Source: a virus. From it: a stretch of 64,000 nt of DNA. Below the pieces are notes generated by a model, which did not search any database, was not told where the DNA came from, and worked only from the letters and a program-made list of their open reading frames with translations. The DNA is taken from IMG/VR virus record IMGVR_UViG_3300044615_001997; one strand, written 5' to 3'. Below, piece after piece: positions 2,677 through 62,595 of the stretch. Positions within the stretch are counted from its first letter, which is position 1. Every line of letters starts with the position of its first letter. Both the position numbers and the translations under genes were made by a program.

Positions 2677-3100
2677 AGAACAAACATTTACAATTAAACA
2701 ATTTGACACCTGCTCGAAGAGCTTTCCTACCGTTAAATTTGAAATGCCTGAATCTTCATCATTAGATGATGTCATCGAAGCATTTGAAGCATTCTTAATA
2801 GGTGTGACTTTCGAGCTGCCTAAAGGAGCCAGGCTAGGATTGGTATACGATGAGGAAACAGAAAGACAGAAGTTGGAAGAAAAATATGGTAAAGACGAAG
2901 ATAAAATTGACTCTGGAAAAGAATATCAAACATTAGCAGGAACTACACCTGATGGTGGAGGTTGGTCGATTTCTCATCCTGTGTGGTCGGAGTCTTTTAC
3001 TTATCCAACAACTCAAACACTCACCACTTCTACTCCAATAACACCAGCACCGGCAAAGACCGCTAAAAAAAAGAAGAGTAAAAAGAAGAAAAATAAATGA
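2666..3100 (+). CDS. Hypothetical protein with Lys-rich tail (144 aa)
   Basis: Coupled ORF with a Thr/Pro linker and KKKKSKKKKNK end. Confidence 0.7.
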   Translation: MNTKEQTFTIKQFDTCSKSFPTVKFEMPESSSLDDVIEAFEAFLIGVTFELPKGARLGLVYDEETERQKLEEKYGKDEDKIDSGKEYQTLAGTTPDGGGWSISHPVWSESFTYPTTQTLTTSTPITPAPAKTAKKKKSKKKKNK

Positions 3101-6100
3101 AAGCTAAATTAGCTATAGGACGTCGACTCACGGCGAGTGAAGATATTTTAAAATGCGAGATAGCTGAACTTCGCCATGAAACTGCAAAAAAACTTGGTTT
3201 GAAGGATCAGCATGGTCTGACTGGTTCAGATGAGTCTAGACTCGAGAAACATAAAGTTGGTGTTGGTGGAGAAATAGCTGCAGCTGCTTGTTTAAAAATT
3301 GAAAATTTTATTCCTGGCGAAGGAGGGTTCAAGAGAATTCCAGATATAAATCTTGTTTGGCGTGACGGTAAGTATGTTTATGACCCAAAACAAGACCACG
3401 GAGGTTTAGAAATCGAAGTCAGGACTTCTACCACACACGACGGAGCTCTTATTATAAGAGATAGCGATAGGAAATATGGAACTTCTAGACCCTTTATTCT
3501 CGAGACTTTTGAAAATGGTCAATATGTTATGCGGGGTTGGATTCCAGAAGGAAGGTTAGCTTTTCAAGATAAATATTATACAGACAACAACAATAATCGT
3601 ACTAAGGCATATTTTATGCCTCAAGAAGATTTATACCCCCTTGAATCGTTATATGAATTAGTAGGAATAAACGTTGAGGATGTATTATCTACACCAGGTA
3701 TAACAACCGGAGATACTGAAATAAAAGAAAAAGTACGTGTAGCTCCTCGTGGTAAGCGTGGAGCAAAGTACATGCTTATCTATTCGCATCCCGGCAAGGA
3801 CGATCTGCAATCTAAGATGTTTGGTTATGCTGGTTACGCTGCCGAAGAAACTATCGCAGCGTTAAAGTCTGTGGGAATTGACCCACAAGAATGTTATTTC
3901 ACTGGAATGGTTAAGGAGGGTATTGGTAACAAGCCCAAGCCCACAGCAGAGCAAATTGAAAAATGGGCGGCTGAACTTGACCAGGAGATAGAGATAATTA
4001 AACCTAAAATAATCATCAGCTTGGGTGCCGAAGTATTTAAGCGGGTGATGAAAACAAATATCAAGGTAGGAGACTACATTGGAGAAATTATAGATTCTCC
4101 GTATGGAAAGCTTCTAGCTAATTATTCTCCTGCTATGGTGGTTGTTCAAGACCCAACCAAACGACCCGAATTCCAAGATATATTTGAATTGGCTAAAAAA
4201 GCCGTAGAGAATAACTTGGAATACGACAAATATACTTACAAGGTAATTTCAGATCCTGCTGAAAATATAGCGGTATTGCAGAGTTACATCGACAGAGGTA
4301 TGTTTAGTATTGGTTATGACGCTGAGTGGTTCGGGGCTAAATTCACCGATGATGAGGTGATGTACGAATTTCAATATAGCTGCGAAAAAGACGTAGCCAT
4401 TATATTGAATATATCTCCTGATGGTAAAACAGAAAATCGTGAGCTGCTCAACACAATGAAGCTCATACTGGAGCATCCCAAAGCTGATAGGCTAGGATGG
4501 AACATCAGGGCTGATGACATTAGACTGGTTTATCGTGGGTTTAATCTCGCAGATGAAACTTTGGGGTTTGATGGAATGAAAGCTGTGGCTTTCTATGACT
4601 CTAGACTCGGTAAGGGATTAGAAACTGGGATTAAAAAATTTACAAATTATCCACCATATTATGTCCCATTTAATCGCAAGATGAAGGAGCATAAGCTGGC
4701 TAAAAATGAATTGGCAAAACTCAAGTTTTTTGAACCCGATGTTTATTATAATTATTGTGCTGGTGACGCCGTGGCTCATCGTGAAGCATGTTTAAATATG
4801 CGTGACGGGTTTCCACAGGAAGTCTGGCCATATTATAAAAACGTATACTTACCATTGACTAATTACTTCTTGGATATGGAGCTTACCGGTATTCCAATAG
4901 ATATGGATGTGTTGGAAGATATCACTGGAAAGTATATGTCTAAGTATGAAGAAATTAAGCTGGAGTTGGGGAATTTTCTAGAACAGAGCTATGGAATAAA
5001 GGAATTTAATCCTAACTCAGCTCTACAGAAAAAAGAGTTCTTGTTTAAAACTTTAGGGTTGAATCCTGCTTATTATACAAAAGCAGGTAAATCACCTAAG
5101 TCTAGGACATGGTGGGAGAGACAAAAGCCACAAACTCAAAAGTTATTCTCTCCTTCCACCAACGGTAAATCTCTATCCACAATTAAATTTGAATTGGAGG
5201 AAGAGATGGCTAAAAACAATTCCCAAGATCTAAAAAACGCACATCAGGCAATTAGTTTATTGTTAAACTTGAACAGAGTTAGTGTTTTTGCCAATAAGTT
5301 CTTGTCCAAGAAAGGTATAGTTGTGACTGAGGATGATGACGATGAACCACTGAAACAGAGTTATTGGGCGGCTATTTCTAAGGATGGGAGAATACATCCC
5401 AGCTTTTTTGAGTTGCTTAAAAACTTCAGATCTTCGAGTTCACCAAACGTACAGAATCCAGCTTCCAAGGTGTTGACTTACATTCCGGATATTTTTATCC
5501 CGGGATATAACAAACTAACTAAGGAGGAGCAATCACAACATGACTCCAAACTACCGGCAAACTTACGCAATATATTCTATCCAGGACATAAAGATTTTAA
5601 CTGGGTAGAGTTGGACATTGCTGGTGCTGACCTGGCTATTATGGCCTTCTTGAGTCAAGATCCTAACTTTATTGGTGACATTCGAGCAGGAAACTTCCAC
5701 CAGACTAAAATGAGGGAATACTTCCAGGATGAAACATTGAGCAAAAAGGACACGGCAAAGTATGTTATATCGAAAGGTATTACTTTCCGAGTATCGTATA
5801 CTGCAGGTCTTGATTTTGCTGCGATACCTATTCAGGCAGACATCTATGCTGAAAATGGACTACACGTTCCATTGCAGCTAATTGAGTTTGCGTTGGAAAC
5901 TTGGAAGCGTTATGAAACCTATATGCGCTATAGACAGCTCTGCAACCTTGAAGTACAAGAAAATAAAAGTATAACTTGTGCCAGAGGAATGCGACTCAAC
6001 TTTGAAGAAACAGATAATTTTGGAATTCTTGCCGGATGGATGAATGAAAGTTTAGCCTTTCCGGTAGCCTCAGAATTAGCTCTCTTCATGTGGGAAGCGT

Positions 6101-6390
6101 CTGTTAATGTAAGAAACTTGTTGAAACGCGAAGGCTTATGGATGCGCTGGATTTACCCTGTGAATGTGGTGCATGATGCCAATTACTGGATAGCTCACAA
6201 AGACTTGCTCAAGGGCAATTATCTTCCTGAGCTACTGAGAACAGTGTTTTGTAAAAGCACAAAAATTGCCACCGGCGATAACTTAGGCTGTGAATTAGTC
6301 GTGAGTGATCGTTGGAAAGGCAAAGAAAAAATATTCGAAAAAGAAACCGTTTGGAATAACGAACTTAATGAATGGGTTTGGAGTTCTTAA
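3097..6390 (+). CDS. Family A DNA polymerase with N-terminal PD-(D/E)XK-like domain, degenerate UDG domain and 3'-5' exonuclease
   Basis: ExoI YDAE, ExoII WNIRAD, ExoIII YCAGD; GRIHP..SSSPNVQN; motif A LDIAGADL; motif B SKGITFRVSY; motif C VVHDA; UDG-like IKPKIIISLG. Confidence 0.9.
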   Translation: MKAKLAIGRRLTASEDILKCEIAELRHETAKKLGLKDQHGLTGSDESRLEKHKVGVGGEIAAAACLKIENFIPGEGGFKRIPDINLVWRDGKYVYDPKQDHGGLEIEVRTSTTHDGALIIRDSDRKYGTSRPFILETFENGQYVMRGWIPEGRLAFQDKYYTDNNNNRTKAYFMPQEDLYPLESLYELVGINVEDVLSTPGITTGDTEIKEKVRVAPRGKRGAKYMLIYSHPGKDDLQSKMFGYAGYAAEETIAALKSVGIDPQECYFTGMVKEGIGNKPKPTAEQIEKWAAELDQEIEIIKPKIIISLGAEVFKRVMKTNIKVGDYIGEIIDSPYGKLLANYSPAMVVVQDPTKRPEFQDIFELAKKAVENNLEYDKYTYKVISDPAENIAVLQSYIDRGMFSIGYDAEWFGAKFTDDEVMYEFQYSCEKDVAIILNISPDGKTENRELLNTMKLILEHPKADRLGWNIRADDIRLVYRGFNLADETLGFDGMKAVAFYDSRLGKGLETGIKKFTNYPPYYVPFNRKMKEHKLAKNELAKLKFFEPDVYYNYCAGDAVAHREACLNMRDGFPQEVWPYYKNVYLPLTNYFLDMELTGIPIDMDVLEDITGKYMSKYEEIKLELGNFLEQSYGIKEFNPNSALQKKEFLFKTLGLNPAYYTKAGKSPKSRTWWERQKPQTQKLFSPSTNGKSLSTIKFELEEEMAKNNSQDLKNAHQAISLLLNLNRVSVFANKFLSKKGIVVTEDDDDEPLKQSYWAAISKDGRIHPSFFELLKNFRSSSSPNVQNPASKVLTYIPDIFIPGYNKLTKEEQSQHDSKLPANLRNIFYPGHKDFNWVELDIAGADLAIMAFLSQDPNFIGDIRAGNFHQTKMREYFQDETLSKKDTAKYVISKGITFRVSYTAGLDFAAIPIQADIYAENGLHVPLQLIEFALETWKRYETYMRYRQLCNLEVQENKSITCARGMRLNFEETDNFGILAGWMNESLAFPVASELALFMWEASVNVRNLLKREGLWMRWIYPVNVVHDANYWIAHKDLLKGNYLPELLRTVFCKSTKIATGDNLGCELVVSDRWKGKEKIFEKETVWNNELNEWVWSS

Positions 6391-6669
6391 ATGTATAAAA
6401 AACACACACTATACACCTTTCAAAGCAACGAACCATGTCCACACTGTAATTCGACAAAAATTTTGAGCTTTGAAATCGAAGAAAACTTAAAAGAAATACA
6501 TGTTGCTCGTTGCCAAGATTGCGGTATCGAAGATGTTGCGATATATGATCTCAGTAACGAGTACATGTACACAGACTATGGTGACACATACCACGAACCT
6601 GGCTATACCAGGGTTAAACAAATTAAGCGGCCTAGAAAGCTTGAATCTGTCCGACAACAGGAAGACTAA
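6391..6669 (+). CDS. Small zinc-ribbon protein
   Basis: CPHC...CQDC; starts immediately after the polymerase stop. Confidence 0.6.
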   Translation: MYKKHTLYTFQSNEPCPHCNSTKILSFEIEENLKEIHVARCQDCGIEDVAIYDLSNEYMYTDYGDTYHEPGYTRVKQIKRPRKLESVRQQED

Positions 6670-7378
6670 GTTTTTCTCCGGTCATAAAAACACATTTGGA
6701 CTGCGGACAGGTTTACCTAAATATGGTGGAACCTGTCCCAGTGCAACCTTTGGCGAAGGCGGATGTCTATGTGGTAGGGGAGCTAAAGGCGAACCTACTT
6801 GCTATGCTGCCAAGCTGCGTAGAATATACCCTAATTATGGTAAAACCGAAGACTATAATACGGATCTACTTCTAAACGCCTCGTACGAGGATATGGTGGT
6901 CATTATTAGAAATACTGTTATGAAATGGCTCCTTAATGGTGGTCATAAAAAGCAGTACTTCCGCCTACATATGGGTGGAGATTTCTTTAATGAAACCTAT
7001 ACTCGTGCCTGGAAGCATGTCATTGACGAATGGCCCCTGGTTAAGTTTTGGACTTACACCAGATCCATGTTCGCTCTACCTATTTTGGCAGATTGTAAAA
7101 ACCTGTCATTATATCTGAGCTGCGATCCTGCCAATGCCGAAGAAGTTCGTAAGGCCTACGAACCATATAAAAGCTACAGTAATGTAGCCGTTGCTTGGAT
7201 GGGGAATAGCTTTCCTGAAGCTGTTCTCAACGACAGGAAATATTTAAAATGTCCTGAAGTAGCCAAGAAGCTAAAAAGTACTAAAGTCGAAGGTGCATGC
7301 TCTAGGTGTAGAGCGTGCATTGACAGACCGTTGAAAGATGGTAAATTGAGGCATATTCAATTTCCTATCCATAAATGA
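6578..7378 (+). CDS. Gp88-like Cys-rich (putative Fe-S, radical-SAM-like) protein
   Basis: TCP..C.C...CYA, FRLHMGGDFF, WTYTRS, and C-terminal CP...CSRCRAC match the phage GP88 family pattern from memory. Start set at ATG 6578. Confidence 0.7.
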   Translation: MVTHTTNLAIPGLNKLSGLESLNLSDNRKTKFFSGHKNTFGLRTGLPKYGGTCPSATFGEGGCLCGRGAKGEPTCYAAKLRRIYPNYGKTEDYNTDLLLNASYEDMVVIIRNTVMKWLLNGGHKKQYFRLHMGGDFFNETYTRAWKHVIDEWPLVKFWTYTRSMFALPILADCKNLSLYLSCDPANAEEVRKAYEPYKSYSNVAVAWMGNSFPEAVLNDRKYLKCPEVAKKLKSTKVEGACSRCRACIDRPLKDGKLRHIQFPIHK

Positions 7379-7779
7379 ACGTGAATATTCATCAATACAA
7401 CACTCCTCTTCTAGAGCTAGATAACAATACGGAAGTTGAAAAACTTTTGTTACCTAGCCTAGAATACGCCATGACGATAGCTTATCCACTACACAAACCC
7501 GAAACATTCAGAGTTATATCTGGGTCTAGCGGCGTTAGAAAAAGTGAGTTAGGAAAAATAATCATGGATGTATATAAGCAGATCTATAGAGAAGAAGTCG
7601 AAGACTCGGGTCCTCCGATGTATCATCCGACAGAGCCCAGACGAATAGAGTCTAGTGGACGTCATGGTATCTGGGGGCATGACCTAGAAGATCTCTGGTT
7701 GAGCTGGGTTGAAATAGATAATAACTTAAACAAAATAACACCTATTGTTACTACAAAAATAAAAACTTATGAACATTGA
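7375..7779 (+). CDS. Hypothetical protein (134 aa)
   Basis: Coupled ORF containing YPL...GIWGHDLEDL. Confidence 0.7.
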   Translation: MNVNIHQYNTPLLELDNNTEVEKLLLPSLEYAMTIAYPLHKPETFRVISGSSGVRKSELGKIIMDVYKQIYREEVEDSGPPMYHPTEPRRIESSGRHGIWGHDLEDLWLSWVEIDNNLNKITPIVTTKIKTYEH

Positions 7780-8467
7780 TACAAATAAAATTAGAAGTAC
7801 TTATTTTAAGGGAAAGAAAGCCTACTTTGTGAGCGATATTGCTGCACAGTTGGGAGAACGTCCTGTAAATCGACTTACAAAAAATAAAGCTATCTTCAAA
7901 GCTAGGGTTAAGGACGAAGGTAATAGTCAAAATCGTCGTCTGGTATTCCATAAAGATCTACAAAATCTTTCTATGGAAAATATTGAAAAGGGAACAGAGA
8001 AACTTTCTATGTTTACACGCATTAAAAAATACTATCAAAAAAATAAAGAAAACTTCAAAGGCGCTGAAAAAAAGCAGACTCCTGTTTTAGTAGATATTTC
8101 ACTAGATAAAATTCGCAAAACCTCTATTTCTTTGGAAAAAGAGCGCAATAATATGATGAAAGATCGTATTAAGCAGCTCTGTCAGAATGAGGGTAAGCGT
8201 ACAGTCGCCGCCAAGAAAAAAGCTGGCGAGACTGTAGATGCTGAGCGTATGGAATATCGTGAGCCGTACCTAGTCATGTATTCGGCATTTGATCGCTATA
8301 TGCGTATCGAGCTTAACAAGCTTAACATGACTTTGGAAGACATCGGTTTGGGTCGTGCCCGTAACGAGGGCAAGAAACCCTATATCGACAGAATTGCTGA
8401 AGCAGGTCAGCTCCATAACTTGCTCGTCGTGGCTGAGGCGTTATTTCAGCCAAAAATCAACAACTAA
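7769..8467 (+). CDS. Basic hypothetical protein, possibly DNA-binding (232 aa)
   Basis: Lys/Arg-rich; N-terminal AYFVSDIAAQLG is Bro-N/HTH-like. Confidence 0.65.
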   Translation: MNIDTNKIRSTYFKGKKAYFVSDIAAQLGERPVNRLTKNKAIFKARVKDEGNSQNRRLVFHKDLQNLSMENIEKGTEKLSMFTRIKKYYQKNKENFKGAEKKQTPVLVDISLDKIRKTSISLEKERNNMMKDRIKQLCQNEGKRTVAAKKKAGETVDAERMEYREPYLVMYSAFDRYMRIELNKLNMTLEDIGLGRARNEGKKPYIDRIAEAGQLHNLLVVAEALFQPKINN

Positions 8468-8479
8468 CACATACCATAT

Positions 8480-8737
8480 ATGGACAGAAAATACACAATC
8501 AAAATCTCGGATAACACCGGACATACAGAGCTCTTGGAGCAAACGACAAAACAAACCGTTGATGCTGTGATGGAGAAAGTTTCGAGCCATGCCCACTGGG
8601 TCTGGATCGATGGTCAACTGTTCGAGTTCGAGCAGGGAGATATCAACTCCAAAGCCAACGCCGATAAATTGGCTGCTCGTCTCGAAACTGCCAATGACCC
8701 CACAGTGGTCTTGTCAGGTACCCTCATCGGGGGTTAA
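8480..8737 (+). CDS. Ubiquitin-like (ThiS/MoaD/Urm1-type beta-grasp) protein with C-terminal di-glycine
   Basis: 85 aa; pattern YTIKIS / HTELLE / helix / WVWIDG / TVVLSGTLIGG-stop; JAB and E1 genes lie downstream. Confidence 0.7.
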   Translation: MDRKYTIKISDNTGHTELLEQTTKQTVDAVMEKVSSHAHWVWIDGQLFEFEQGDINSKANADKLAARLETANDPTVVLSGTLIGG

Positions 8738-8760
8738 TCGAGTCTAGAAGACTTAATCAA

Positions 8761-8794
8761 GAAGGGGGAGCTTCGGCTCCCCCTTCTATTTATT
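8761..8794 (+). terminator. Intrinsic terminator after the Ubl gene
   Basis: 11-bp stem GAAGGGGGAGC/GCTCCCCCTTC, cUUCGg tetraloop, TATTTATT tail. Confidence 0.8.
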
Positions 8795-8810
8795 GCTAAC
8801 CCATACACTT

Positions 8811-10874
8811 ATGAATATATCTACCAAAAAATTCAATTCCTTTGTAGACGAGTATAGTAAAGTTAAAAAATTCGTTACCGAAGGCAATGTAGTGATACGC
8901 GAAGATTGGAGCAAGCGTAATTACAACAAGCCAAACAACAACGAAGATGAAGTATATTCTATACACTACGAGAACTTAAAATTTAAAAATCTATCTAACG
9001 CACATAAATTTACTCAAGTTAGCAGAATCAATGGAAACCCAAAAATACTAACCGTAGAAAATAAAAAAGATCCTAACTCTCCAGAAGTTAAGATAAAAGA
9101 GTCTATCGCTGGCAATCTCTCAGCGGGGTCGTTACTGATGGTTACTACTGCAACCGCACAAAATTTAGCCAAAGATTATAAATCTATGCGGTTTATTCCC
9201 AAAACTGATCTAGATAATAAGCTCAAGTTTCCAAAAATTATTTCAAAGCCACCGTACGAGATAATGGAGGGAAATAACACCTATCGTGTGCTTTGTCGTT
9301 CTGGTTACGGTATTTATTTTATCGGTTGCGACACTGACGACATTTATGATTACCTCGATGAAGGATTCTTCATTTTAGGTATAACCGGAGTAACGCCTTC
9401 AGGTAAAAAGAATCGACACATGGTTGTAACGAACCAGTTGGATATCAATACCATGCATATTTTTATCCTGTGCCAGTTCCAGCCGAAGTTTTGTGAAATG
9501 TTACATAAAGGATGTTTTGTCCACACTAATGATGCACAAATGATGCGTCTTAAAATGGAAAAGAAACTTCCGGAAAAATACAAAACTAAGTACGAGCATG
9601 CCCGTGAAGCCATTGAGAAAGACTATCAAAACAACACCTCACTGATTCTTATTAATAACCTAAATAATAAAGAAATCGCCAAGGTGGCATTGAATGATAT
9701 CGAGCTCACCAGTAACTCGGCCTCTTACGACAGAATCAAAATAGAGGCAGACGACCTCCTGAATGTAATCTATTCAAAGGTTAACTTTGGTGGCGAGTTT
9801 GATATTTATTCTGTGGTAGAAACTTATGCCGACCACATTCAAGAAAAAGTGGACGGAGCTCAATTGCCTGAAGAAGGGCAATTTAGAACTCTACCTACCA
9901 TAAAGATCAATGGTTTTAACATTAATATAACCACATCACATACCGGTGTACGTAGAATTAATGGAAAGCGTATCAATAAAGCAGAAATTAAGGATGCCGT
10001 CTACCGAGCTAGTTGTCATCATACTCAAGAAGATTACGACTTATTCTTAAATCGTATCTCGAGAATGAGCTTATTGTGGCACGATATTCTGGCAAATGGC
10101 TTACCTGTTAAAATTCACGACAACATGACGTGGGATGAGTATAGGGAGCCAGAACCATCTGCCGCCGCTCCGGCAATTAAGTTCTTTATCGATAAAGAAG
10201 ATCGTTGCATCAAGATTAAAACCGAGGATCCTAAAGGTTGCCGTGTTCGTTTAGGGCAACTAATTAAGAAAATCGATACAATCAATCGTAAAACAAATAA
10301 TCGCTGGACGCGTGGTGGTATGGAGAGCCGTAACAGTAGGTGGGCCAGAAAAGAGCTAGCTAAAGCCTTGAAAGAGGCCACCACGTTTGATGTTAAAACC
10401 AAGCGGGAAGACGGAACTGTAGAGACTCGTTCTGTTACAGGTATAACTGCAGCAGACATCACAAAGCTGATTCAAATAGCAGATGAATACAAGAAGGCAG
10501 CTATCGAGAGAAGCAAAAACTTCCTCGCTACAGCTGTTCAATTCACGGGTGCAAAAGAAATTGAATTTATGGGTAAGCAAGCCTATAAAGTTGATGGAAC
10601 GTTGCGTTCGTATGCTGTAGTTATAGAAACTGCCAAGGTGTATGACTATCAGACAAAACAGTATCGTTGTATCGTAAACGACAACCATTTCCGTGGTGCA
10701 GGTTACGACGACATTGCCGCTAGACTATATGCACTGAAGAATGACTCAGTTATGCAGAAAGTGATTGGAACATTGAAGGGTGCCGCTCAGCCAGGAGCTG
10801 AGAATGCACACAATGACTATGTTCCTGACCGTGCAGTAGATGACGCCGTTCTAGAAGGATTAAATCTAGATTAA
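8811..10874 (+). CDS. Large hypothetical protein (687 aa) between the Ubl and JAB/E1 genes
   Basis: Long ORF with likely ATG start at 8811; C-terminal segment VDGTLRSY...YRCIV...ARLYALKND. Confidence 0.8.
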   Translation: MNISTKKFNSFVDEYSKVKKFVTEGNVVIREDWSKRNYNKPNNNEDEVYSIHYENLKFKNLSNAHKFTQVSRINGNPKILTVENKKDPNSPEVKIKESIAGNLSAGSLLMVTTATAQNLAKDYKSMRFIPKTDLDNKLKFPKIISKPPYEIMEGNNTYRVLCRSGYGIYFIGCDTDDIYDYLDEGFFILGITGVTPSGKKNRHMVVTNQLDINTMHIFILCQFQPKFCEMLHKGCFVHTNDAQMMRLKMEKKLPEKYKTKYEHAREAIEKDYQNNTSLILINNLNNKEIAKVALNDIELTSNSASYDRIKIEADDLLNVIYSKVNFGGEFDIYSVVETYADHIQEKVDGAQLPEEGQFRTLPTIKINGFNINITTSHTGVRRINGKRINKAEIKDAVYRASCHHTQEDYDLFLNRISRMSLLWHDILANGLPVKIHDNMTWDEYREPEPSAAAPAIKFFIDKEDRCIKIKTEDPKGCRVRLGQLIKKIDTINRKTNNRWTRGGMESRNSRWARKELAKALKEATTFDVKTKREDGTVETRSVTGITAADITKLIQIADEYKKAAIERSKNFLATAVQFTGAKEIEFMGKQAYKVDGTLRSYAVVIETAKVYDYQTKQYRCIVNDNHFRGAGYDDIAARLYALKNDSVMQKVIGTLKGAAQPGAENAHNDYVPDRAVDDAVLEGLNLD

Positions 10875-10878
10875 CTTA

Positions 10879-10913
10879 TAGAGCCCCTGTAGGCAAATCC
10901 TACAGGGGCTCTA
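10879..10913 (+). terminator. Perfect 15-bp hairpin (terminator or RNA-processing site)
   Basis: TAGAGCCCCTGTAGG-CAAAT-CCTACAGGGGCTCTA with no clear U-tract. Confidence 0.6.
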
Positions 10914-10939
10914 ATACATAAACTTAAACAAATAATTAA

Positions 10940-11590
10940 ATGAAAACATATATTATAGACATTGAAACTGCTCCATTACCTCAAAACCAAATAGAGGCAT
11001 TTCAGCCAGAATTTAAAGCCGATACTCGTTTGAAAGACCCTATAAAAATAGCGGAAGATATTAAAAATAAAAAAGAAAAGTTTATAGCTAACGCTGCTTT
11101 AAATCCTCTTACTTCGTATATTTGTGCTTTGGGTGTTTGGGAAACTTCTCAAAAAGAACCTGAGTTATATATCTCTAATAGCGAAAAAAATATCATTGAA
11201 GCATTTTTAGAGTTAATCAAAGAAGAAAATTTAACCAGAACAAGAATAGTGACATTTAATGGAATGAACTTCGATATTCCGTTTTTATGTCGAAGAGGTT
11301 TACTCTATGGTCACGATATATTCCCAACATTCTATAGAATAGATGGATGCTTTAAAATTTTAGATAAAGCTCCGGTATTTATAGACTTGGCTGCTATATG
11401 GGATTGCCGTAGAAAAGACTATATTAGTTTGAATGACTTAGCTATCTATATGGGGGTAGGTAAAAAAAATAAGAATGAAGATCTTTTTTATCAATTGCTA
11501 GAAAAAAATAAAGATGTCGCTAAGGATTATTTAATTAATGATTTAAAATTAACTAAAGATATAGCAGAAAAATGGGGATTAATTAAATGA
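10940..11590 (+). CDS. DEDDy 3'-5' exonuclease (PolB-exo-like, standalone)
   Basis: IIDIET, TFNGMNFDIPFL, FIDL, YLIND. Confidence 0.85.
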   Translation: MKTYIIDIETAPLPQNQIEAFQPEFKADTRLKDPIKIAEDIKNKKEKFIANAALNPLTSYICALGVWETSQKEPELYISNSEKNIIEAFLELIKEENLTRTRIVTFNGMNFDIPFLCRRGLLYGHDIFPTFYRIDGCFKILDKAPVFIDLAAIWDCRRKDYISLNDLAIYMGVGKKNKNEDLFYQLLEKNKDVAKDYLINDLKLTKDIAEKWGLIK

Positions 11591-12048
11591 GATTAATAGA
11601 AAAAATAAATAAGGGGTTAGCTAGAGCTGTAGCTACGGCTACAGTGGAATGCGGTGACTCTAAAGAAGAAGAAGGAGGGATTATTCTCACTAATAATCAA
11701 TCTTCAGGAGCTAGAGATTATAAATTTATAAAAGTTATAAACGACCGACGTGGAACACTCTCTGCTCGAGGACTATATGTGGCAAACCCTGAAGATTTTG
11801 GAAAGCATGTATTTCCATCAATTTCTGAAGGTTGGAATATGTATGCAAGTTTTCATACTCATCCCACCTTTTCAGCTACACCTAGTTCTCTAGACGAAGA
11901 TAAATTATTCAGAGGATTTAAATATAATTTTATATTTTCTAACTCTGAAAGGACTGTATCGTGTTCGGAGTGGTCTCCGCAAAACGATTTGCATACTGTG
12001 TATTTAAACATTATAACCTTACTATACTTAGCTAATGAGCAAGATTAA
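11587..12048 (+). CDS. JAB/MPN+ (JAMM) metallo-isopeptidase
   Basis: EEEGGIIL, then exact HxH-x7-S-x2-D motif HTHPTFSATPSSLD. Confidence 0.85.
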   Translation: MRLIEKINKGLARAVATATVECGDSKEEEGGIILTNNQSSGARDYKFIKVINDRRGTLSARGLYVANPEDFGKHVFPSISEGWNMYASFHTHPTFSATPSSLDEDKLFRGFKYNFIFSNSERTVSCSEWSPQNDLHTVYLNIITLLYLANEQD

Positions 12049-12631
12049 AAAAATTGGTATTGCCGGTGCCGGTGGCATTGGATCAAATTTACTGGCTATA
12101 TTATTTGATTACGGTTTTAATCGTAAGCAATTTGACTATTCTTCTGTGGATGTTGATATATACGATGATGATGTGGTAGATCTAAAAAATCTACTACATC
12201 AAAACTTCAAGATGGAAGATATCAGCAAGTACAAAGTAAAAGTTCTTGAAGATAAATACGTTGTGAAGGGCATCACTAAATTCATGGATGAAAAAGACTT
12301 TAAGAAATATGACGTTATTTTCAGCTGTGTAGACAGTATGGAATTTAGACGTAAGCTCTATAACTATGGCTTTGAAAATAAAACCAAGCCGTTTTGGATT
12401 GATGGTCGTTGCACTAGTCGTCAAGGGGCTATCTTCAACTCTGATGTTGCTGAAACTGAACTAAAAAAATATATTACCGAAGACGATATTCGTGGAGGCT
12501 GCCTCCTAAATTACGAGAAAGAACAAAACATAAGCCATACTATCCCGCTTGTAGTGGCAGGAATGATGGTACAAACATTCTTGAATTTCTTGCGTGGTGA
12601 AAAGACCGACAAGAAATTATTTATGGTGTGA
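12035..12631 (+). CDS. ThiF/MoeB/E1-like adenylyltransferase
   Basis: IGIAGAGGIGS, YDDDVVDLKNLLHQ, KYKV, SCVDSMEFRR, WIDGR, candidate catalytic Cys in GGCL. Confidence 0.9.
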   Translation: MSKIKKIGIAGAGGIGSNLLAILFDYGFNRKQFDYSSVDVDIYDDDVVDLKNLLHQNFKMEDISKYKVKVLEDKYVVKGITKFMDEKDFKKYDVIFSCVDSMEFRRKLYNYGFENKTKPFWIDGRCTSRQGAIFNSDVAETELKKYITEDDIRGGCLLNYEKEQNISHTIPLVVAGMMVQTFLNFLRGEKTDKKLFMV

Positions 12632-12936
12632 TGATTGCTTATAAATTACTCAAAAAAAGAAAAAATGGAACCATAGGTTCCCTGTTTATAAACAAGAGAG
12701 CTGTTTTGGAAACTGGTAAATGGTTGGTGGCTGAAGACCATAAAACAAATGGCTTCTCCCACCGACCAGGATGGCACTGTACAGTTGCTGCTAAGGCACC
12801 TCACTTAAAAGAAGAAGGACGTGTGTGGTATAAGGTAGAAGTATCTGGTTATCGCACCTTCAATCGCCCCAAGAGTCAGGGAGGAAAATGGCTCATTGCA
12901 AATAAATTAAGAATATTAACACCATTAGAAAATTAA
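12628..12936 (+). CDS. Hypothetical phage protein (102 aa)
   Basis: AYKL...SLFIN...W...RPGWH...SQGGKW; coupled to the E1 gene. Confidence 0.75.
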   Translation: MMIAYKLLKKRKNGTIGSLFINKRAVLETGKWLVAEDHKTNGFSHRPGWHCTVAAKAPHLKEEGRVWYKVEVSGYRTFNRPKSQGGKWLIANKLRILTPLEN

Positions 12937-12937
12937 T

Positions 12938-13681
12938 ATGGGATACACACATTACTGGGAAACTTTAAGAAGTTTTACCGACGAAGAATGGGACAGTTTA
13001 ACAAAAGAAGCCAACCGTATTATAGGGTTGGCTAAAAGTTTAAATATATCATTAGGAGATGCTCTTGGTGATTTTGAGCCTGTAGTGACTAAGAAAAGAA
13101 TAGCCTTAAATGGCTATGGTAACGCAGGATGCGAGTCCTTTATTTTAATGAAAAATAAAAGAGAAGCTGCAGACTGGGAAAGAAAACGTGAAAACGACGC
13201 AGTTTTTGATTTCTGCAAAACTCGTCAATTACCGTATGATGCTGTGGTAGTTTCTATATTATTTGCAGCCAATAAAATAGCTCCGGACGCACTACGTCCA
13301 AGTAGCGATGGTGGTGATATATTTGAATCTGCTATAGACATAATGGCAGCTAAAATGTTGAGCGCTGCACCGGTAGAAAAAAATTATCACGAAACAAATT
13401 GCGAGATTGTGGAAAAAAAGATGCGTGAGACGCTTGACAATATCTGCAATCAACTCGATATTAACTTCATGAAGTTTGGTGTTTCAGAAGACTTACACAA
13501 AGCAATATTGTTAAGATTTAATGATATTTATGAACGTGTAGATTCTTTAACAAGTCTCTTCAAAACATATGACTCGTTTTTCGAGGTGGCCGATGCGCTG
13601 AATACTGAAATTAAAAAAGAATACAAATTATTCAAAAATCTAAATGAACTTACTTTAATAACACAATATGCCAATAATTAA
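12938..13681 (+). CDS. Conserved phage protein (MGYTHYW type) with helical C-terminal extension
   Basis: MGYTHYW...ESF...FCKT..LPYD...SSDG pattern. Confidence 0.7.
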   Translation: MGYTHYWETLRSFTDEEWDSLTKEANRIIGLAKSLNISLGDALGDFEPVVTKKRIALNGYGNAGCESFILMKNKREAADWERKRENDAVFDFCKTRQLPYDAVVVSILFAANKIAPDALRPSSDGGDIFESAIDIMAAKMLSAAPVEKNYHETNCEIVEKKMRETLDNICNQLDINFMKFGVSEDLHKAILLRFNDIYERVDSLTSLFKTYDSFFEVADALNTEIKKEYKLFKNLNELTLITQYANN

Positions 13682-14744
13682 ACCTAGCCTTAAATTCGAG
13701 GGTGCTGAAACAGGTACTACTCAAAATACAACACCATATCTACGTGAAGATGTACGCAAAGTTATCTTTAATAAAAATAACAATCAAAACGGAGTTTATC
13801 TATACTTTCTCCCACCTTATCGAGCGGATAGCTTGGGTAATGGTGTATGGTACAAAAGCATAGAAATACGCGACAATTTTGGCGATAAGTACAAAGAAAA
13901 ATATCTGGTTGTCTCTCGTGAAAATGATCCTGCCGAATATTTTGGAAGAAATTTTAAATTACTCTATCCAGAAGAATCCAAACCAGGCACAATTGTAAAT
14001 AACGGAAAAACATTCAAGAAATATCCGAATTACGGCCGTGTCACTAAGCGTGTGCTTTTCAATGTGGCATATGCTAACAAGCTCGAAGCAGGCCCACATA
14101 TCTTGGACCTGCCTCTAGCTAACGGTGCCAGCCAGCTATTTGACTGGCTAAGCAAGACCGATATTGCTGGTAACCCTCGTCCACTGGTAAATAATCCAGA
14201 GGCAGCGTTCCCAGTATTTCTTCAATTAAAAGATTCTGGTACAAATCCTTGGCAATTGAATGTGGAAGCTAGCCAACCAGCTATACTTCCTGAGGCAATC
14301 GCCACATCAGATAATCTCTACAACTTAGATGAGATTCTAGTGATTCGTTCCAAAGAAGAAATTATCGGAAAACTCCGTGAAATGTATCCTCAACATGTAT
14401 TCGATGACTGCATGAACGGATATCCTGGGTTAAAAACAGCTAAATCTGCTGGTTTTGGTCCTGGGCCTGTTCAGCCGCAATTCTCTGCCGCAACTGTTAG
14501 TCAGTCTAATACTCCTACATTTTCCGCAGCTACGCCCGTAGCGAAACCAGTTCCAGCAGGAAATATTAATCTTCCTATTCCTGGCACTGCTCCTGGCGTT
14601 GTTCAGGCAGATGTACCGGTTAAAACTTCACTACCTAGCGTTACAACCACAGCACCAATAGACCCTTCGGAACTTCCTCCGAATCCTATGGCTGCTATGT
14701 CGTCCATGACACGCGAACAAGCTGAGAAGTTCTTGGCATCCTAA
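13668..14744 (+). CDS. Probable single-stranded DNA-binding protein (gp32-like)
   Basis: YFLPP, DPA, R.LFNV, ILDLP pattern with a Pro/Ala-rich tail; lies directly before RecA. Confidence 0.55.
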   Translation: MPIIKPSLKFEGAETGTTQNTTPYLREDVRKVIFNKNNNQNGVYLYFLPPYRADSLGNGVWYKSIEIRDNFGDKYKEKYLVVSRENDPAEYFGRNFKLLYPEESKPGTIVNNGKTFKKYPNYGRVTKRVLFNVAYANKLEAGPHILDLPLANGASQLFDWLSKTDIAGNPRPLVNNPEAAFPVFLQLKDSGTNPWQLNVEASQPAILPEAIATSDNLYNLDEILVIRSKEEIIGKLREMYPQHVFDDCMNGYPGLKTAKSAGFGPGPVQPQFSAATVSQSNTPTFSAATPVAKPVPAGNINLPIPGTAPGVVQADVPVKTSLPSVTTTAPIDPSELPPNPMAAMSSMTREQAEKFLAS

Positions 14745-14748
14745 TCCT

Positions 14749-15942
14749 ATGGATTTTGACGCTTATTTAAACAGTATCAAGAAGGACTTTAATAAAGCCT
14801 TCAAAGGTTCTGAGGCATCTCTAGAATTAAACTCTGTAGACAAGGAACTTCCTCCTACAGGTATTACTCTAGATAATCCGCTCTTGGAATATGCATTTGA
14901 CCGTAGGTTCATAGCCTACGGTAGGTGCTACCTAATCTATGGTAAAAAGGGTTGTTCAAAAACCACATTGCTGTTTGAATTGGGCAAAATCTTCCAGAGA
15001 GCCGGAGGCAAGATGATCTGGGTGGAGACGGAGAATGCTCCTGACTTTGACTATATGAAACGTCAAGGACTGGACCCTGCTAACGTCATTTATCATAATC
15101 CCAAATCTTTGGAAGAAGCTCTAACACTGATCAAAACCATGATCGAGAATATACCCAAACACGATCCTGAAGGTAAAACACCTATCATGATTGCCTTGGA
15201 CTCGATCGCTGGGGCGGCTTCAGAGTATGAGCGCGACCAAGACATTATCGGCCAAACCAAAGTCGGTGAGCACGCTAAACTTATGAGTGGGTTTTATCGC
15301 CATATCATTCCATACTTAGAATCCGAAAGAGCTATTCTGGTTGTAACAAATCAACTAAAAGAACAAATCGGAGGCATGATGGGCTTTGGAACTGAAAAAC
15401 CCGAAGCTCTGATCGGCGGAGAAGCTCAAAAGTTCAACTCTACATATCAATTCAAAGTAGCCAGAATCACTGACCTACTTGAAGAAGATCATATGGGAGT
15501 TAAGCGTAAATGTGGATCAACGCACTCCCTCACTGTGAAGCGTAACAAGCTGGGCCGTGAGGGTAATAGTCAAAAAATCACCTTTGATATCTATATTAAT
15601 GGTGGTATTGATTGGTATTCTCCGTTGGTAAAACATTTAGGTGAAAGCTATACTGCTATAGTCGGAAAGACTGGTGGATGGTACACATGGAAAACACCTG
15701 ACTGTAAAGCCACAATCTTGATTGATGGTGAACCAACAGAAGTCGATATCGATACTTCTAAAAAGTATAGAGACAAAGAATTAGGATTCTTGATTGCAAA
15801 TAGCCAAGACGCTAAAGAAGTCTGCCGTAAAGCCTTCGGTATACCTGATATGCCGGATGCTCAAACCACCCAAGCTATTGAAGCCAAGAACAAGAGTAGG
15901 AGAAAGAAAAAATCAGACCTAGAATCGGATCTTGAAGAATAA
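14749..15942 (+). CDS. RecA/UvsX-like recombinase
   Basis: PTGI..LD, GR..LIYGKKGCSKTT, WVETE, ALDSIAG, VTNQLKE, GGEAQKF, KRNK. Confidence 0.9.
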   Translation: MDFDAYLNSIKKDFNKAFKGSEASLELNSVDKELPPTGITLDNPLLEYAFDRRFIAYGRCYLIYGKKGCSKTTLLFELGKIFQRAGGKMIWVETENAPDFDYMKRQGLDPANVIYHNPKSLEEALTLIKTMIENIPKHDPEGKTPIMIALDSIAGAASEYERDQDIIGQTKVGEHAKLMSGFYRHIIPYLESERAILVVTNQLKEQIGGMMGFGTEKPEALIGGEAQKFNSTYQFKVARITDLLEEDHMGVKRKCGSTHSLTVKRNKLGREGNSQKITFDIYINGGIDWYSPLVKHLGESYTAIVGKTGGWYTWKTPDCKATILIDGEPTEVDIDTSKKYRDKELGFLIANSQDAKEVCRKAFGIPDMPDAQTTQAIEAKNKSRRKKKSDLESDLEE

Positions 15943-16133
15943 TGACTGACTATATGCAAAAACTGGCCGATGTAGCCCAGCTAATCAAAAAAATGGATTT
16001 GCCGGAATACAGAAAATCAGTTAAACATAACACAGACTTAAGATGGTTGAAAAATAACTTACATGTAAAAAATGGTAAGCACAAAAACTATCAAAAAGTC
16101 ATAGACATTATAGATACACTAAGTGTAGGTTAA
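15942..16133 (+). CDS. Hypothetical protein (63 aa)
   Basis: Coupled small ORF. Confidence 0.65.
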   Translation: MTDYMQKLADVAQLIKKMDLPEYRKSVKHNTDLRWLKNNLHVKNGKHKNYQKVIDIIDTLSVG

Positions 16134-16143
16134 TATTATTACA

Positions 16144-16169
16144 GGGGCGGAGCAATAGGGCTCCGCCCC
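16144..16169 (+). terminator. GC-rich hairpin
   Basis: GGGGCGGAGC-AATAGG-GCTCCGCCCC. Confidence 0.55.
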
Positions 16170-16184
16170 ATAGAACTAAATTTT

Positions 16185-16685
16185 ATGATATATGTAGGAG
16201 TAGACAACGGAACATCTTCAAATGGTATAGGTGTAGTTTCAGACAGCGGTAAAAGCTGGCTGTTTAAAACACCTATTAAAAAAGAATTGAGCTACACAAA
16301 AGTAGCCAAGAAAATATCTCGCATCGATTTTCCAAAGATGCTGGAGACATTTGAAGAAATACAGGACTTGGCAATGGACGAAGAGATGATTGTGGGTCTT
16401 GAACGACCTATGGTGAATCCTGGAAGGTTCTTTGCTTCTATGAGTGCCATGAGAGCCTTGGAGTCTACGTTGATAGTCCTGGAGTTGAACAGTATTCCAT
16501 ACATATATCTCGATAGTAAAGAATGGCAGCATGTCCTGCTACCAAAAGATTTAAAGAAAGATGACCTTAAAAAAGCCAGCTTAGATATCGGCAAAAGACT
16601 ATTTCCTAAGCTCACTTTTAAGGGTGACGCAGACGGAATACTCATTGCTGAATATCTGAGAAGGAAAAATAACAAAAAGTTATAA
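16185..16685 (+). CDS. RuvC-like Holliday junction resolvase
   Basis: YVGVDNG, VGLE, SKEWQ, DADGILIAEY. Confidence 0.8.
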   Translation: MIYVGVDNGTSSNGIGVVSDSGKSWLFKTPIKKELSYTKVAKKISRIDFPKMLETFEEIQDLAMDEEMIVGLERPMVNPGRFFASMSAMRALESTLIVLELNSIPYIYLDSKEWQHVLLPKDLKKDDLKKASLDIGKRLFPKLTFKGDADGILIAEYLRRKNNKKL

Positions 16686-27135: not shown

Positions 27136-30100
27136 TCAATTAACTTTTATATTTATAAACGCCGAAGCATCGAAACGATTGTTTTCACAATAAACACAAA
27201 CTCTGTATGTTCCTGGGGCAGAAATTGTTCCTGAAATTTTTCCTGTGGTGGCATCAATACTTAGCCCAGCTGGAATGTTTAATATATACCACCCGGTAGG
27301 TACACCGACATAGGTGGGAGTAAACTCAAAAGGAGTACCAGCAGCGACTATTACAGTTTGTTCAGGATTAATTTTAAGTAAACTTGTAATGGCTGCCACA
27401 ATTATCTTTATTTTTTCACTACTAGCGCCATAACTGTTTTCAACTTTTATCTCACAATCTACCCCACCAGCAGAGGTAGCTTGCGTAGGTGTTCCGCTTA
27501 TTGTGCCTCTTAAAGTATTTAAAGTTAGCCCTTGAGGCAGTGGAGTCAACGCTGCCCATTGTGTGGGAGGAGTTCCTCCAGCAGATGAAAAAGCTATACT
27601 GTATGTTATAAAATTAGCTGTTGATAAATTTATAACTTGATTGGGGGTGATAACGGGTACTTTAGACAATATATTAATTTTTATACTAGCGCTTCCAGAA
27701 ATACCGCTTACGCCCGTAGCAGTAACTACGCCTGTATATTCTCCCGCTATTCCAGGAGTTCCTGAGATTACGCCGGTATTAGATATAGTTAATTGAAGAG
27801 AGGTAGGAAGATTTGTTAATTGCCATGAAATTGGATTTCCTTGTGTACGTACTGTAGCTGTAAACGGATCTAAAGCATAGCCATTAAAGCTTTGTCCGGG
27901 GCTTACAACTATAGCTGGCTCATCTACCGCTACAGTGATATTTTCTTCGTCACTTCCGTCTTGATTCCCTGCAAAAATACGAATGGTTCTACTACCGCTA
28001 TATACTGTAGGAGTACCAGATAGCGCACCAGTAGAACCATTTAATATTAAGCCTGCAGGTAATTCACCAGACACTATCCTCCACTCCGTCACATTTCCAG
28101 AAAATGTTATATTTCTAGAAAATGGTGAATTTAATGTAGCTCTGAATATTTGTCCTTGCGCAATATTAGGAGCATTAACACTTTCTGTAATTTGAAAATT
28201 AATTGTTGCAGGTGCGCTATCGCCAGCAGAATTTGAGGCTATTAATTGTGCAGATGTATTTCCTGCGGTTGTTGGAATCCCAGACAAGTAACCATTTCGT
28301 CCGTCTAGCGTTATCCCGGGATGTAGTAAGGTTTGTGCTGTGGCTAATCTCCAATTTATAGGTGTACCGCCGCTATTTAAAAATCCTATAGTGTAATTGA
28401 AATTAACTCCCTTTCTTCCGATAAATGTTTGATTTGGTGTTATAACCGGAATCAAGGTTGAGCTGGCTACGATAATAGTTATTTCAGCAGTATCACTACC
28501 TGACTCATTTTCTACTCTAATTATTGTTGTGAATGTTCCTGTGGCTGAGGGAATTCCAGATATGGTTCCTACTATCGCACTTAGCGAAGTCCCAGAAGGT
28601 AGAGAATTGTTCGGAATATTATCAACTAACCAATTTGTGATAGTACCTGTGGCTTCGAGTTGAAAGCTAAAGTGAGCTCCTCTGAACGCATTTATAGTTT
28701 GATTATTTATAACAGGCGGAATAACGGAAGACACAACATTTATGGCTAAAGTTGTAGTAGCACTTCCGGCAGAATTACTAGCTGTAACTGTAACAGTTTT
28801 ATTTTCTACTGCAGAAGGTCTTCCGGAAATTGTTCCTGAGTTAAAATTAACAGACAGTCCTTGCGGTAAATTAGAGGCTGCCCACGCTGTAGCTATTCCT
28901 CCAGAATTTACAAAGTTATAAGGAGTCATGTTGACGTTTCTAATCAATTGTATCGGGCTGAGATTTTGTTCTAATACTGGTAATTGCGTGGTTGGTGAAG
29001 TCACTGTGATGGAAACAGTTTCAGTATCTGTACCTGCCGAATTTCTTGCAGTTATTATAGCATTAAATACTCCTGCTGTTAGAGGTCTTCCTTGAAGTCT
29101 GCCTGTATTTCCGTCCATACTAACACCGCTTGGCAAATCTTGACTTGTTAGTGTAACCCCAGACCCAGTAAAAAGTATTGTTGCATTTGTTGTGATAGTT
29201 GTATTTAGTGTGAATGTAAAAGTTTGACCGGCCGTTATTTGTGGAATTGTGACAGGTTGAGTTATTATAAACTCCACAGCTCCGGTGCTACTACCTGCAC
29301 TATTGGAAGCTGTTATATTACTTGATGTGGTTGTGGCGGCAGCATTTAAAGTTCCTGATATTTGACCTGTGGTTGTAGCGATAGCTAATCCTTGAGGTAA
29401 CCCCGTAGCTGTCCAGCTTGTAGCCGTTCCACCAGTTGTTTGGACGAAGAGGTTGCTTACTTGCTGCCCTGTCACTAAATTAAACTTTTGTCCTGAGGGT
29501 ATTTCGGGTTTTATAACTCCCTGAGTAATCGTTATTGTGACATTGACTGTAGGGGAGCGCCCCTTACTGCTTTCGGCAAATATACCGACAATAAAAGTAC
29601 CTGCAGTTGTTGGTTTTCCTGTAAATCTACCTATAGATAACGAAAAAGTTAATCCTGGGGGTAGCTGTGTGGGTATAGGTAAACCCCAAGTGATAGGTGT
29701 GCCTCCTGTAAAAGCTACCGTAAACTCAGCATCATTAGATGCAGTTCCTGTAAATGTTTGATTAGGTGTTATTACAGGTATTTCCGCCGATACAACTAAA
29801 GCCACGAATGCGCTAGAAGTATTTCCAAAGTTAGTTAAAGTTACTCTTATGTTATAATTACCTGCAGGAGGTGTGGTTCCTGACAGTCTTGCTGGATTAA
29901 AAAATAGTTGTACTCCGGCTGGAGCAAACTCCAAAGTACCGCCGGTAGGTGTTCCACCGGTGGTGGCGATATTTCTACCAAAACTACCGGTCCCCTCCGT
30001 TAAATCAAAAATTTGGTTAGGTGTTATTGTTATTGGCTCATCTTTAATTATAAATTTAACTGGCACATTTCCAGTAGAGCCAGATAAATTTGATGCGCTG

Positions 30101-62501: not shown

Positions 62502-62595
62502 GCTGGATTAGTGTAACTGGAAGCACCGACGGTCTTATAAGCCGTGTGCCCTAGATGAGGGCCGAGCGTAGGTTCGATTCCTACATCCAGCACCA
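62502..62595 (+). tRNA. tRNA with UAU (Ile) anticodon and long variable arm
   Basis: Acceptor GCTGGAT/ATCCAGC, loop CTTATAA, V-arm GCCCT/AGGGC, T-arm GTAGG-TTCGATT-CCTAC, ACCA end. Confidence 0.85.

Follow-up and report, generated by a model that had tools for sequence, protein, structure and literature searches.

The DNA analysed here is a 64,000-nucleotide stretch of the IMG/VR virus record IMGVR_UViG_3300044615_001997, referred to in its whole length as the window, and it carries an apparent phage-encoded ubiquitin-like conjugation module. Five plus-strand open reading frames (ORFs) fill positions 8480–12631, encoding in order a small ubiquitin-like protein (Ubl), a 687-residue protein, a DEDD exonuclease, a JAB/JAMM metallopeptidase and a minimal E1. 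The exonuclease and JAB genes overlap by 4 nt, the JAB and E1 genes by 14 nt, and the E1 gene and the next ORF by 4 nt. A first-pass annotation, made from the sequence alone, had described these five genes together with the first two overlaps, and we recovered them all.

Two sets of IMG/VR loci were used to ask which of these genes travel together: a close set of 18 related loci with enough flanking DNA, and a distant set of 31 loci, for which the C-terminal domain of distant large proteins was the sole query. The Ubl, the 687-residue protein, JAB and E1 lie side by side in each of the 18 close loci, and all 31 distant loci have the four genes in the contiguous order large protein, Ubl, JAB, E1. 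The Ubl, JAB and E1 genes that had been singled out as the core of a conjugation system are thus real, intact and strictly co-conserved in phages, and they are linked in every locus with enough flank, as the proposal had anticipated. Six loci from other collections, representing five further lineages (L021, L023, L024, the P0279 contig and the pair L026/L028), also carry the four genes, in varying gene orders. Wherever the neighbourhood of a more distant large-protein member could be read, ThiF and JAB genes were found within a few kb, and a GG-ended Ubl was found near distant large proteins wherever the DNA was readable. In total, the module was seen in about 55 loci, and the large uncultured phages that carry it belong to several unrelated groups. 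It is very probable that the four genes form one functional system. The exonuclease (10940–11590, + strand; 216 residues), a PolB-exo-like 3'-5' enzyme with Pfam matches to DNA_pol_B_exo1 (1.4e-8) and RNase_H_2 (1.1e-7), was considered as a further component and rejected as dispensable, since it is missing from 7 of the 18 close loci and from all 31 distant ones; we regard it as an accessory neighbour.

The first gene (8480–8737, + strand) encodes an 85-residue protein that ends in LIGG-stop (G84 and G85) and has no family in Pfam, PHROGs, NCBIfam or PADLOC. The AlphaFold2 model (pLDDT 84.8) has the bb-a-bb-a-b order, and nearly all matches in a fold search were Ubl or beta-grasp proteins, in agreement with the beta-grasp pattern first read from the letters. 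The best of these matches were modifier-type proteins, the sulfur carrier TtuB being placed no higher than rank 47. The last two glycines are kept in all 14 database homologs and in the copies of 16 IMG/VR relatives, at identities down to 35%, and the expected conservation of the GG extends to all lineages compared, though Ubl identity drops to 25%. Among 20 Ubl sequences from several phage lineages only G14, W40, G45, L68, G84 and G85 are invariant, and the family motifs are G-H, K-W-x-Y-x-D-G and L-x-GG.

The tag of the window phage is predicted to be already mature (GG-stop). Ubl homologs carry 0–10 unconserved residues after the GG, and in the 31 distant loci the Ubl has 74–88 residues and ends in GG plus 0–3 residues. 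In L024 an 80-residue Ubl ends in LVGG-Q and its gene lies between those for ThiF and JAB. Longer precursor forms also occur: in L023 and L021 the Ubl makes up the N-terminal ~85 residues of a longer protein, with 104 or 199 residues after the GG, and in L026 (4752–5405) and L028 (4771–5370) two Ubl repeats stand in tandem, both ending in LTGDLAGG and joined by a 4–7-residue linker. Such a tandem gene in a phage would encode a polyubiquitin-like precursor or an ISG15-like di-Ubl.

Between the Ubl gene and the gene for the 687-residue protein lies an intrinsic-terminator-like element (8760–8797, + strand), a hairpin with a 12-bp stem (8 G-C pairs) and a TTCG loop followed by a T-rich tail, which is the strongest such site in 6300–16200. 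A G+C-rich hairpin with a T run is found at the same place in 16 of 16 related loci (17 of 17 with the window), their sequences being unrelated. Either the Ubl gene closes the upstream transcription unit, or read-through is attenuated, if the element acts as its sequence suggests; both readings would yield more tag than enzyme, fitting a stoichiometric substrate. A TTG at 8793 falls within the terminator tail, and the ATG start of the 687-residue protein is set by the Met and the N-terminus conserved in homologs.

The JAB gene (11587–12048, + strand) encodes a 153-residue protein that matches Pfam Prok-JAB at 4.1e-9 (36.8 bits against a cut-off of 25). The JAMM site (E28, H90, H92, S100 and D103) is complete and invariant in 17 relatives, and the positions of the HxHx7Sx2D motif (11854–11895), which had been called perfect, were verified. 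In the first-pass annotation the peptidase was held to be unnecessary for maturation of a tag that already ends in GG, and deconjugation was thought to be its likelier role. One half of this view stands: JAB is kept intact where the Ubl already ends in GG (in the window, P0001, P0002, P0004, P0005, L019 and most of the 31 distant loci), which argues that maturation is not its only job. The other half does not extend to the family, since most relatives carry residues, whole domains or a second Ubl after the GG, so that JAB would have to mature the tag in many phages.

The E1 gene (12035–12631, + strand) encodes a 198-residue protein consisting of a ThiF-type adenylation domain only. It matches Pfam ThiF at 7.9e-19 (68.2 bits against a cut-off of 28.1), covering positions 22–208 of the 238 in the profile, and starts five residues ahead of the GxGxxG strand. 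The residues G11-x-G13-G14-x-G16, D44/D46, N52, Q56, K67, D100 and R105 are present, and G11, G13, G14, G16, D44, D46, K67, D100 and R105 are invariant across lineages. The protein has three cysteines in all and no CxxC, and the C-terminal zinc and Ubl-binding region of MoeB, ThiF and UbaA is missing. Only one of the three, C156 (codon 12500–12502), is invariant across lineages; it is situated past the adenylation core and ahead of the last helix, and an alignment by eye places it as the counterpart of the crossover-loop cysteine of MoeB/ThiF, making it a candidate catalytic residue. No gene of the set is better conserved than E1, which shows 64–83% identity where the Ubl has 35–66%. Matches at E <= 0.001 fall into 276 clusters (90% identity) and, among the 120 listed, lengths are 179–201 residues, mostly ~198. 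The closest NCBIfam model is PRTRC_ThiF (E 3.5e-12), followed by ThiS-adenylyltransferase ThiF models.

The fourth component, the 687-residue protein (8811–10874, + strand), has no family above threshold in Pfam or PHROGs and none in NCBIfam or PADLOC. A profile search of 1.84 billion representatives yielded 439 family members (representatives at 50% identity), 293 of them below 1e-10, with a family length of 650–790 residues. Few positions are conserved overall in 129 diverse full-length members, namely two cysteines and a few Gly, Asn and Asp residues. The two best-conserved positions are C402 (99%) and C620 (98%); N384, N389, E392 and G430 are conserved together with C402, and no lysine is conserved in these members. 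Conservation is lowest in the N-terminal ~350 residues. C402 (codon 10014–10016) belongs to a middle conserved domain (residues ~355–445; 9873–10145, + strand), to which structure comparison gave no fold assignment, and C620 (codon 10668–10670) to a DUF7737-like, UBC-like C-terminal domain (residues ~545–660; 10443–10790, + strand). These features make the protein a candidate E2 or E2/E3-like carrier of the Ubl.

The case for an E2-like domain comes from the AlphaFold2 model of the protein (pLDDT 79.9). In it the C-terminal domain runs through a long helix, a four-strand meander, the C620 loop and three to four helices, which is the order of the UBC fold, and 13 E2, UEV or RWD structures, including bacterial BubB and the Cap2 E2 domain, were found in the top 50 of 48,161 chains. 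As modelled, then, the domain looks E2/UEV-like. Other searches gave little: the whole model matched nothing in the PDB at E <= 0.001 by Foldseek; a shape search of the ESM Atlas returned template modelling (TM) scores of 0.15–0.25, the two top rows being DUF4132/DUF7737 clusters; and Atlas feature searches with the whole protein and with residues 540–665 gave no usable match. A profile of the C-terminal domain found only chance-level matches among PDB sequences, its alignment to five Cap2-type E2 domains with hhalign had a probability of 0.5% and covered only a 7-column Cys motif, and no canonical E2 is detectable by sequence in the module. Since these sequence-profile tests of E2 homology were negative, the E2-like label is one that we infer and not a finding. 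A predicted complex of two E1 copies, the Ubl and the C-terminal domain scored 0.00, below the mark, which speaks neither for nor against the assembly.

The only recurrent Pfam signal in the large-protein family is DUF7737 (PF24879), a domain found at the C-terminus of bacterial DUF4132 proteins. The window domain scores 18.6 bits (E 0.0019), under the 27-bit gathering threshold, and 14 of 40 family members match at E <= 1, the best at 1e-4. In the reverse direction, a hidden Markov model of the phage domain matches the DUF7737 protein of the bacterial locus L036 at E 1e-6, with the cysteine aligned. The similarity is distant and extends over the strand meander and the cysteine loop (Y-x-C-I-V in phages, Q-Y-L-C-I-V-P in bacteria), whereas the remainder of the phage protein is unrelated to DUF4132. 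By these scores the C-terminal domain is best described as a distant relative of DUF7737 and not a member.

We also inspected the neighbourhoods of DUF4132/DUF7737 proteins in three Bacteroidota loci. In L036 (7007–10042, − strand) a 141-residue gene product ending in LVGG-stop is encoded 3 nt upstream of an 868-residue DUF4132-DUF7737 protein. In L037 (2470–5771) the gene for an 862-residue DUF4132-DUF7737 protein overlaps by 4 nt with that of a 238-residue ThiF downstream. In L038 (11330–16979, − strand) the homologous small protein ends in LAGSYW, and the DUF7737 domain has Ser at the cysteine position, a change reminiscent of the oxyester chemistry that has been reported for Bub (PMC11601596). 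The cysteine is aligned in two of the three DUF7737 proteins. A tie between the cysteine domain and Ubl or E1 genes is therefore seen independently in bacteria, in three loci, which are few. These loci may represent an undescribed bacterial Ubl-linked system; full-text searches of the literature returned nothing on the function of DUF4132 or DUF7737.

From the presence, integrity and co-conservation of the four genes, their invariant catalytic-type residues, and a tag with a beta-grasp fold that also occurs in precursor forms, we infer that the phage probably runs a tagging cascade from E1 through an E2/E3-like cysteine carrier to a target. In the first step JAB would expose the GG; there is nothing to remove in the window phage, and tails, extensions or a second Ubl in relatives. 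The mini-E1 would then adenylate the GG and probably hold the tag as a thioester on C156. Next, the large protein would take over the tag on one of its cysteines. C620, which belongs to the E2/UEV-like C-terminal domain, is the likeliest acceptor, and C402 may be a second relay cysteine in the manner of an E3. Finally, the poorly conserved N-terminal half of the large protein would pick the target, and JAB could also reverse the modification. The conserved terminator right after the Ubl gene would fit a tag made in excess over the enzymes. Since the module always lies among early replication and recombination genes, host or phage proteins that are tagged early in infection are the likeliest targets.

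Some points weigh against such a cascade. The combination of GG, JAMM and E1 is also found in sulfur-carrier pathways (CysO/Mec+ and QbsE/QbsD). Furthermore, the E1 is cut short on either side and may not be competent: it has neither the N-terminal helices on which the arginine finger of MoeB/ThiF sits nor the C-terminal CxxC zinc and Ubl-binding region.

A broader proposal, which we offer with rather less confidence than the cascade itself, is that the two-cysteine proteins and bacterial DUF7737 form an unrecognised class of Ubl-transfer enzymes, E2/E3 hybrids in which two cysteines hand the tag on, and that large environmental phages run a complete, self-contained cascade. In that event, the cascade may use poly-Ubl precursors in some lineages, and may act in early infection on host or phage proteins or on something other than protein, for example nucleic-acid ends. 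Such a system would be the virus-side counterpart of Bil, CBASS and Bub in the host.

The first-pass annotation favoured E1-only, SAMP-like tagging, which our analysis does not support. Tagging of the SAMP/UbaA or TtuB/TtuC kind, with the 687-residue protein as a dedicated substrate, scaffold or tag reader, has precedents in archaea and Thermus, where E1-only conjugation exists; the failure to detect a canonical E2 by sequence would be explained, and a dedicated substrate would, like the large protein, always be adjacent. However, the large protein is as strictly linked as the other three, and a family with two cysteines conserved at 98–99% and no conserved lysine in 129 members fits a catalytic protein and not an acceptor. 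Its C-terminal domain has an E2/UEV-like topology and structural matches to go with it, and the E1 is without the C-terminal region present in UbaA/MoeB-type enzymes. E1-only tagging is therefore an unlikely account of the module.

A further alternative concerns purpose rather than chemistry. The module might serve chiefly to neutralise host Ubl immunity (Bil, CBASS Cap2/Cap3 or Bub), for instance through JAB stripping host conjugates or through the phage tag capping or occupying phage or host targets. The same enzyme classes are found in the host systems (PMC10097602, 10.1101/2023.09.04.556158, PMC11601596), there are weak matches of JAB to CBASS Cap3-type JAB models and of E1 to Cap2 E1-E2 models, and the variable N-terminal half of the large protein would fit an arms race. 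The PADLOC matches are nonetheless weak (E 1e-3 to 6e-6), and the module sits beside replication genes and not in a recognisable anti-defence cluster, so that we consider counter-defence improbable as its purpose.

Least probable of all is a sulfur-carrier pathway, in which the E1 would convert the GG to a thiocarboxylate, the cysteines of the large protein would act as a persulfide relay or sulfurtransferase thiolating a nucleotide, tRNA, DNA base or cofactor, and JAB would trim the precursor or free the adduct, as in QbsE/QbsD or CysO/Mec+. JAMM trimming of residues past the GG is known for sulfur carriers, the ThiS-adenylyltransferase models mentioned above stand next to PRTRC_ThiF among the E1 matches, and the module lies among nucleic-acid metabolism genes in a phage with six tRNA genes and a divergent polymerase; yet a scan of ~30 window ORFs and of neighbourhoods with Pfam annotation from four other lineages turned up no rhodanese, cysteine desulfurase, PP-loop ATPase, ThiG, MoaE or radical-SAM partner (ThiG and MoaE had already been reported as missing), tandem di-Ubls and 100–200-residue C-terminal fusions are typical of protein modifiers and not of ThiS/MoaD, and the top fold matches of the Ubl are modifier-type, with TtuB only at rank 47.

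The surroundings of the module are those of a phage replication and recombination block, with genes for a DnaB-like helicase, a UDG-PolA fusion, GP88, a RecA-like protein and an RNA ligase; giant tail-type proteins come after this block. The fusion is a 1097-residue polymerase (3097–6390) in which a domain of the UDG (uracil-DNA glycosylase) superfamily (residues 219–360) precedes a family A polymerase domain that falls under the Pfam cut-off (32.4 against 34.3 bits). At 13668–15942 we noted a 358-residue protein of no family, with a low-complexity Pro/Ala-rich tail at its end, that is conserved beside the RecA-like gene in all 19 related loci reaching that far and may be a single-strand-binding or mediator partner of the recombinase. 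A 4850-residue ORF (27136–41688, − strand) had first suggested a crAss-like identity, which was dropped because the ORF matches a tail-protein PHROG, through its C-terminal ~200 residues (3e-24), and not a virion RNA polymerase. After it come ORFs of 1587, 1789 and 1163 residues with tail-fibre or minor-tail repeats. One of the six tRNA genes, a tRNA-Ile(TAT) called by ARAGORN at 62502–62595, is 94 nt long, ~20 nt above the other five; an intron, a long variable arm or a miscall is possible.

DNA of the window is also present in lake-water metagenomes, with at least half of the sampled words found in nine sequencing runs, two of which may be where the DNA came from, and relatives lie on viral contigs of 165–226 kb. 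All carriers of the module are phage contigs (28–226 kb) with replication and structural genes. Two of them, L026 (RXKB01000001.1, 226,528 bp) and L028 (CAYMQQ010000001.1, 211,238 bp), hold the full module with the same neighbours and were binned in metagenome-assembled genomes (MAGs), deposited as a Candidatus Dependentiae MAG and a Sediminibacterium MAG; both nevertheless look like phage genomes that were binned into MAGs, and the Sediminibacterium bin may hint at a Bacteroidota host. Among GenBank phages (INPHARED) the region had no blastn match and the E1 and large protein no tblastn match, and no cultured relative was found there. Some carriers have additional genes within or beside the module. 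In the 140-kb phage contig L024, three paralogous proteins of 222–257 residues and no family are encoded between the large protein and ThiF-Ubl-JAB (8945–11223), and a Ku homolog lies just downstream. The 219-kb relative L023 has a 71-residue Cys-rich protein (10015–10230) inserted between the large protein and JAB, and a DUF8296 protein (10729–11187) between JAB and E1, both of them lineage-specific additions.

Full-text literature searches (phage Ubl/E1/JAB, crAss with ThiF, PRTRC and DUF4132) found no description of the module; what they returned was confined to systems encoded by hosts and to the lambda-type tail pair of Ubl and JAB (Iyer et al. 2006; PMC1779556). So far as is known, prokaryotic Ubl conjugation has been characterised only in cells, in the form of SAMPs in archaea and of CBASS Cap2/Cap3, Bil and Bub in bacteria; the last three are shown or proposed to be anti-phage, and here the same logic is carried by a virus, with a candidate transfer component that belongs to no described family. 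If the proposed cascade is correct, it would represent a programmable protein-tagging tool for phage takeover or counter-defence, a new enzyme class in the E2/E3 repertoire and a first hint at what the widespread bacterial DUF4132/DUF7737 proteins do. With parts that are small and look soluble, the chemistry is within reach of co-expression in E. coli.

Among systems that share some of these parts, the PRTRC (ParB-related, ThiF-related) cassettes of plasmids and integrative and conjugative elements (NCBIfam TIGR03734-03742) resemble the module in their carriage on mobile elements and in their short E1s, but the PRTRC_ThiF match (46.2 bits) is far below the 144.75-bit cut-off, and no other PRTRC model (proteins A–F, ParB homolog) matched any of eight module proteins at E <= 0.1. 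In contrast to type II CBASS (Cap2/Cap3), the module has a stand-alone E1 and no E2-E1 fusion; the PADLOC E1-E2 matches span the nucleotide-binding loop only (residues 4–75, best E 6e-6), and no CD-NTase was found among the window ORFs scanned. SAMP/UbaA/HvJAMM1 and TtuB/TtuC have in common with it a small GG-ended beta-grasp tag, a ThiF-type E1 and a JAMM peptidase. These systems work without a further protein and serve as sulfur carriers as well, whereas the module has a strictly co-conserved fourth protein, an E1 without the zinc and C-terminal region, and no linked sulfur-transfer enzymes in the neighbourhoods scanned.

The di-Ubl and fused tags of the relatives are like eukaryotic polyubiquitin and ubiquitin-fusion precursors and like the BubAB fusion that is cut by BubCD (PMC11601596); with 100–200 residues or a second Ubl attached, they imply endoproteolytic release at the GG by the linked peptidase. 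Like those of Bub and Bil, this peptidase is of the JAMM type, neither a USP nor a UCH, and the window's own Ubl differs from such precursors in being already mature. A close comparison is with Bil (BilABCD; 10.1101/2023.09.04.556158; PMC10557695), the ISG15-like anti-phage systems of bacteria. Bil and the module have in common a Ubl that ends in Gly, an E1 that stands apart, a JAB/JAMM peptidase and a protein with a cysteine for transfer, which in the module is the candidate carrier; in both, a single tight cluster holds the four genes. Unlike Bil, the module is encoded by phages and not found in defence islands, its E1 is a 198-residue adenylation domain only, its Ubl is a single beta-grasp of 75–90 residues from a new sequence family, and a two-cysteine protein of 650–790 residues, with no detectable sequence similarity to Prok-E2 families, takes the place of the ~150-residue E2. 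On our reading, the module works like Bil, yet it is no member of Bil.

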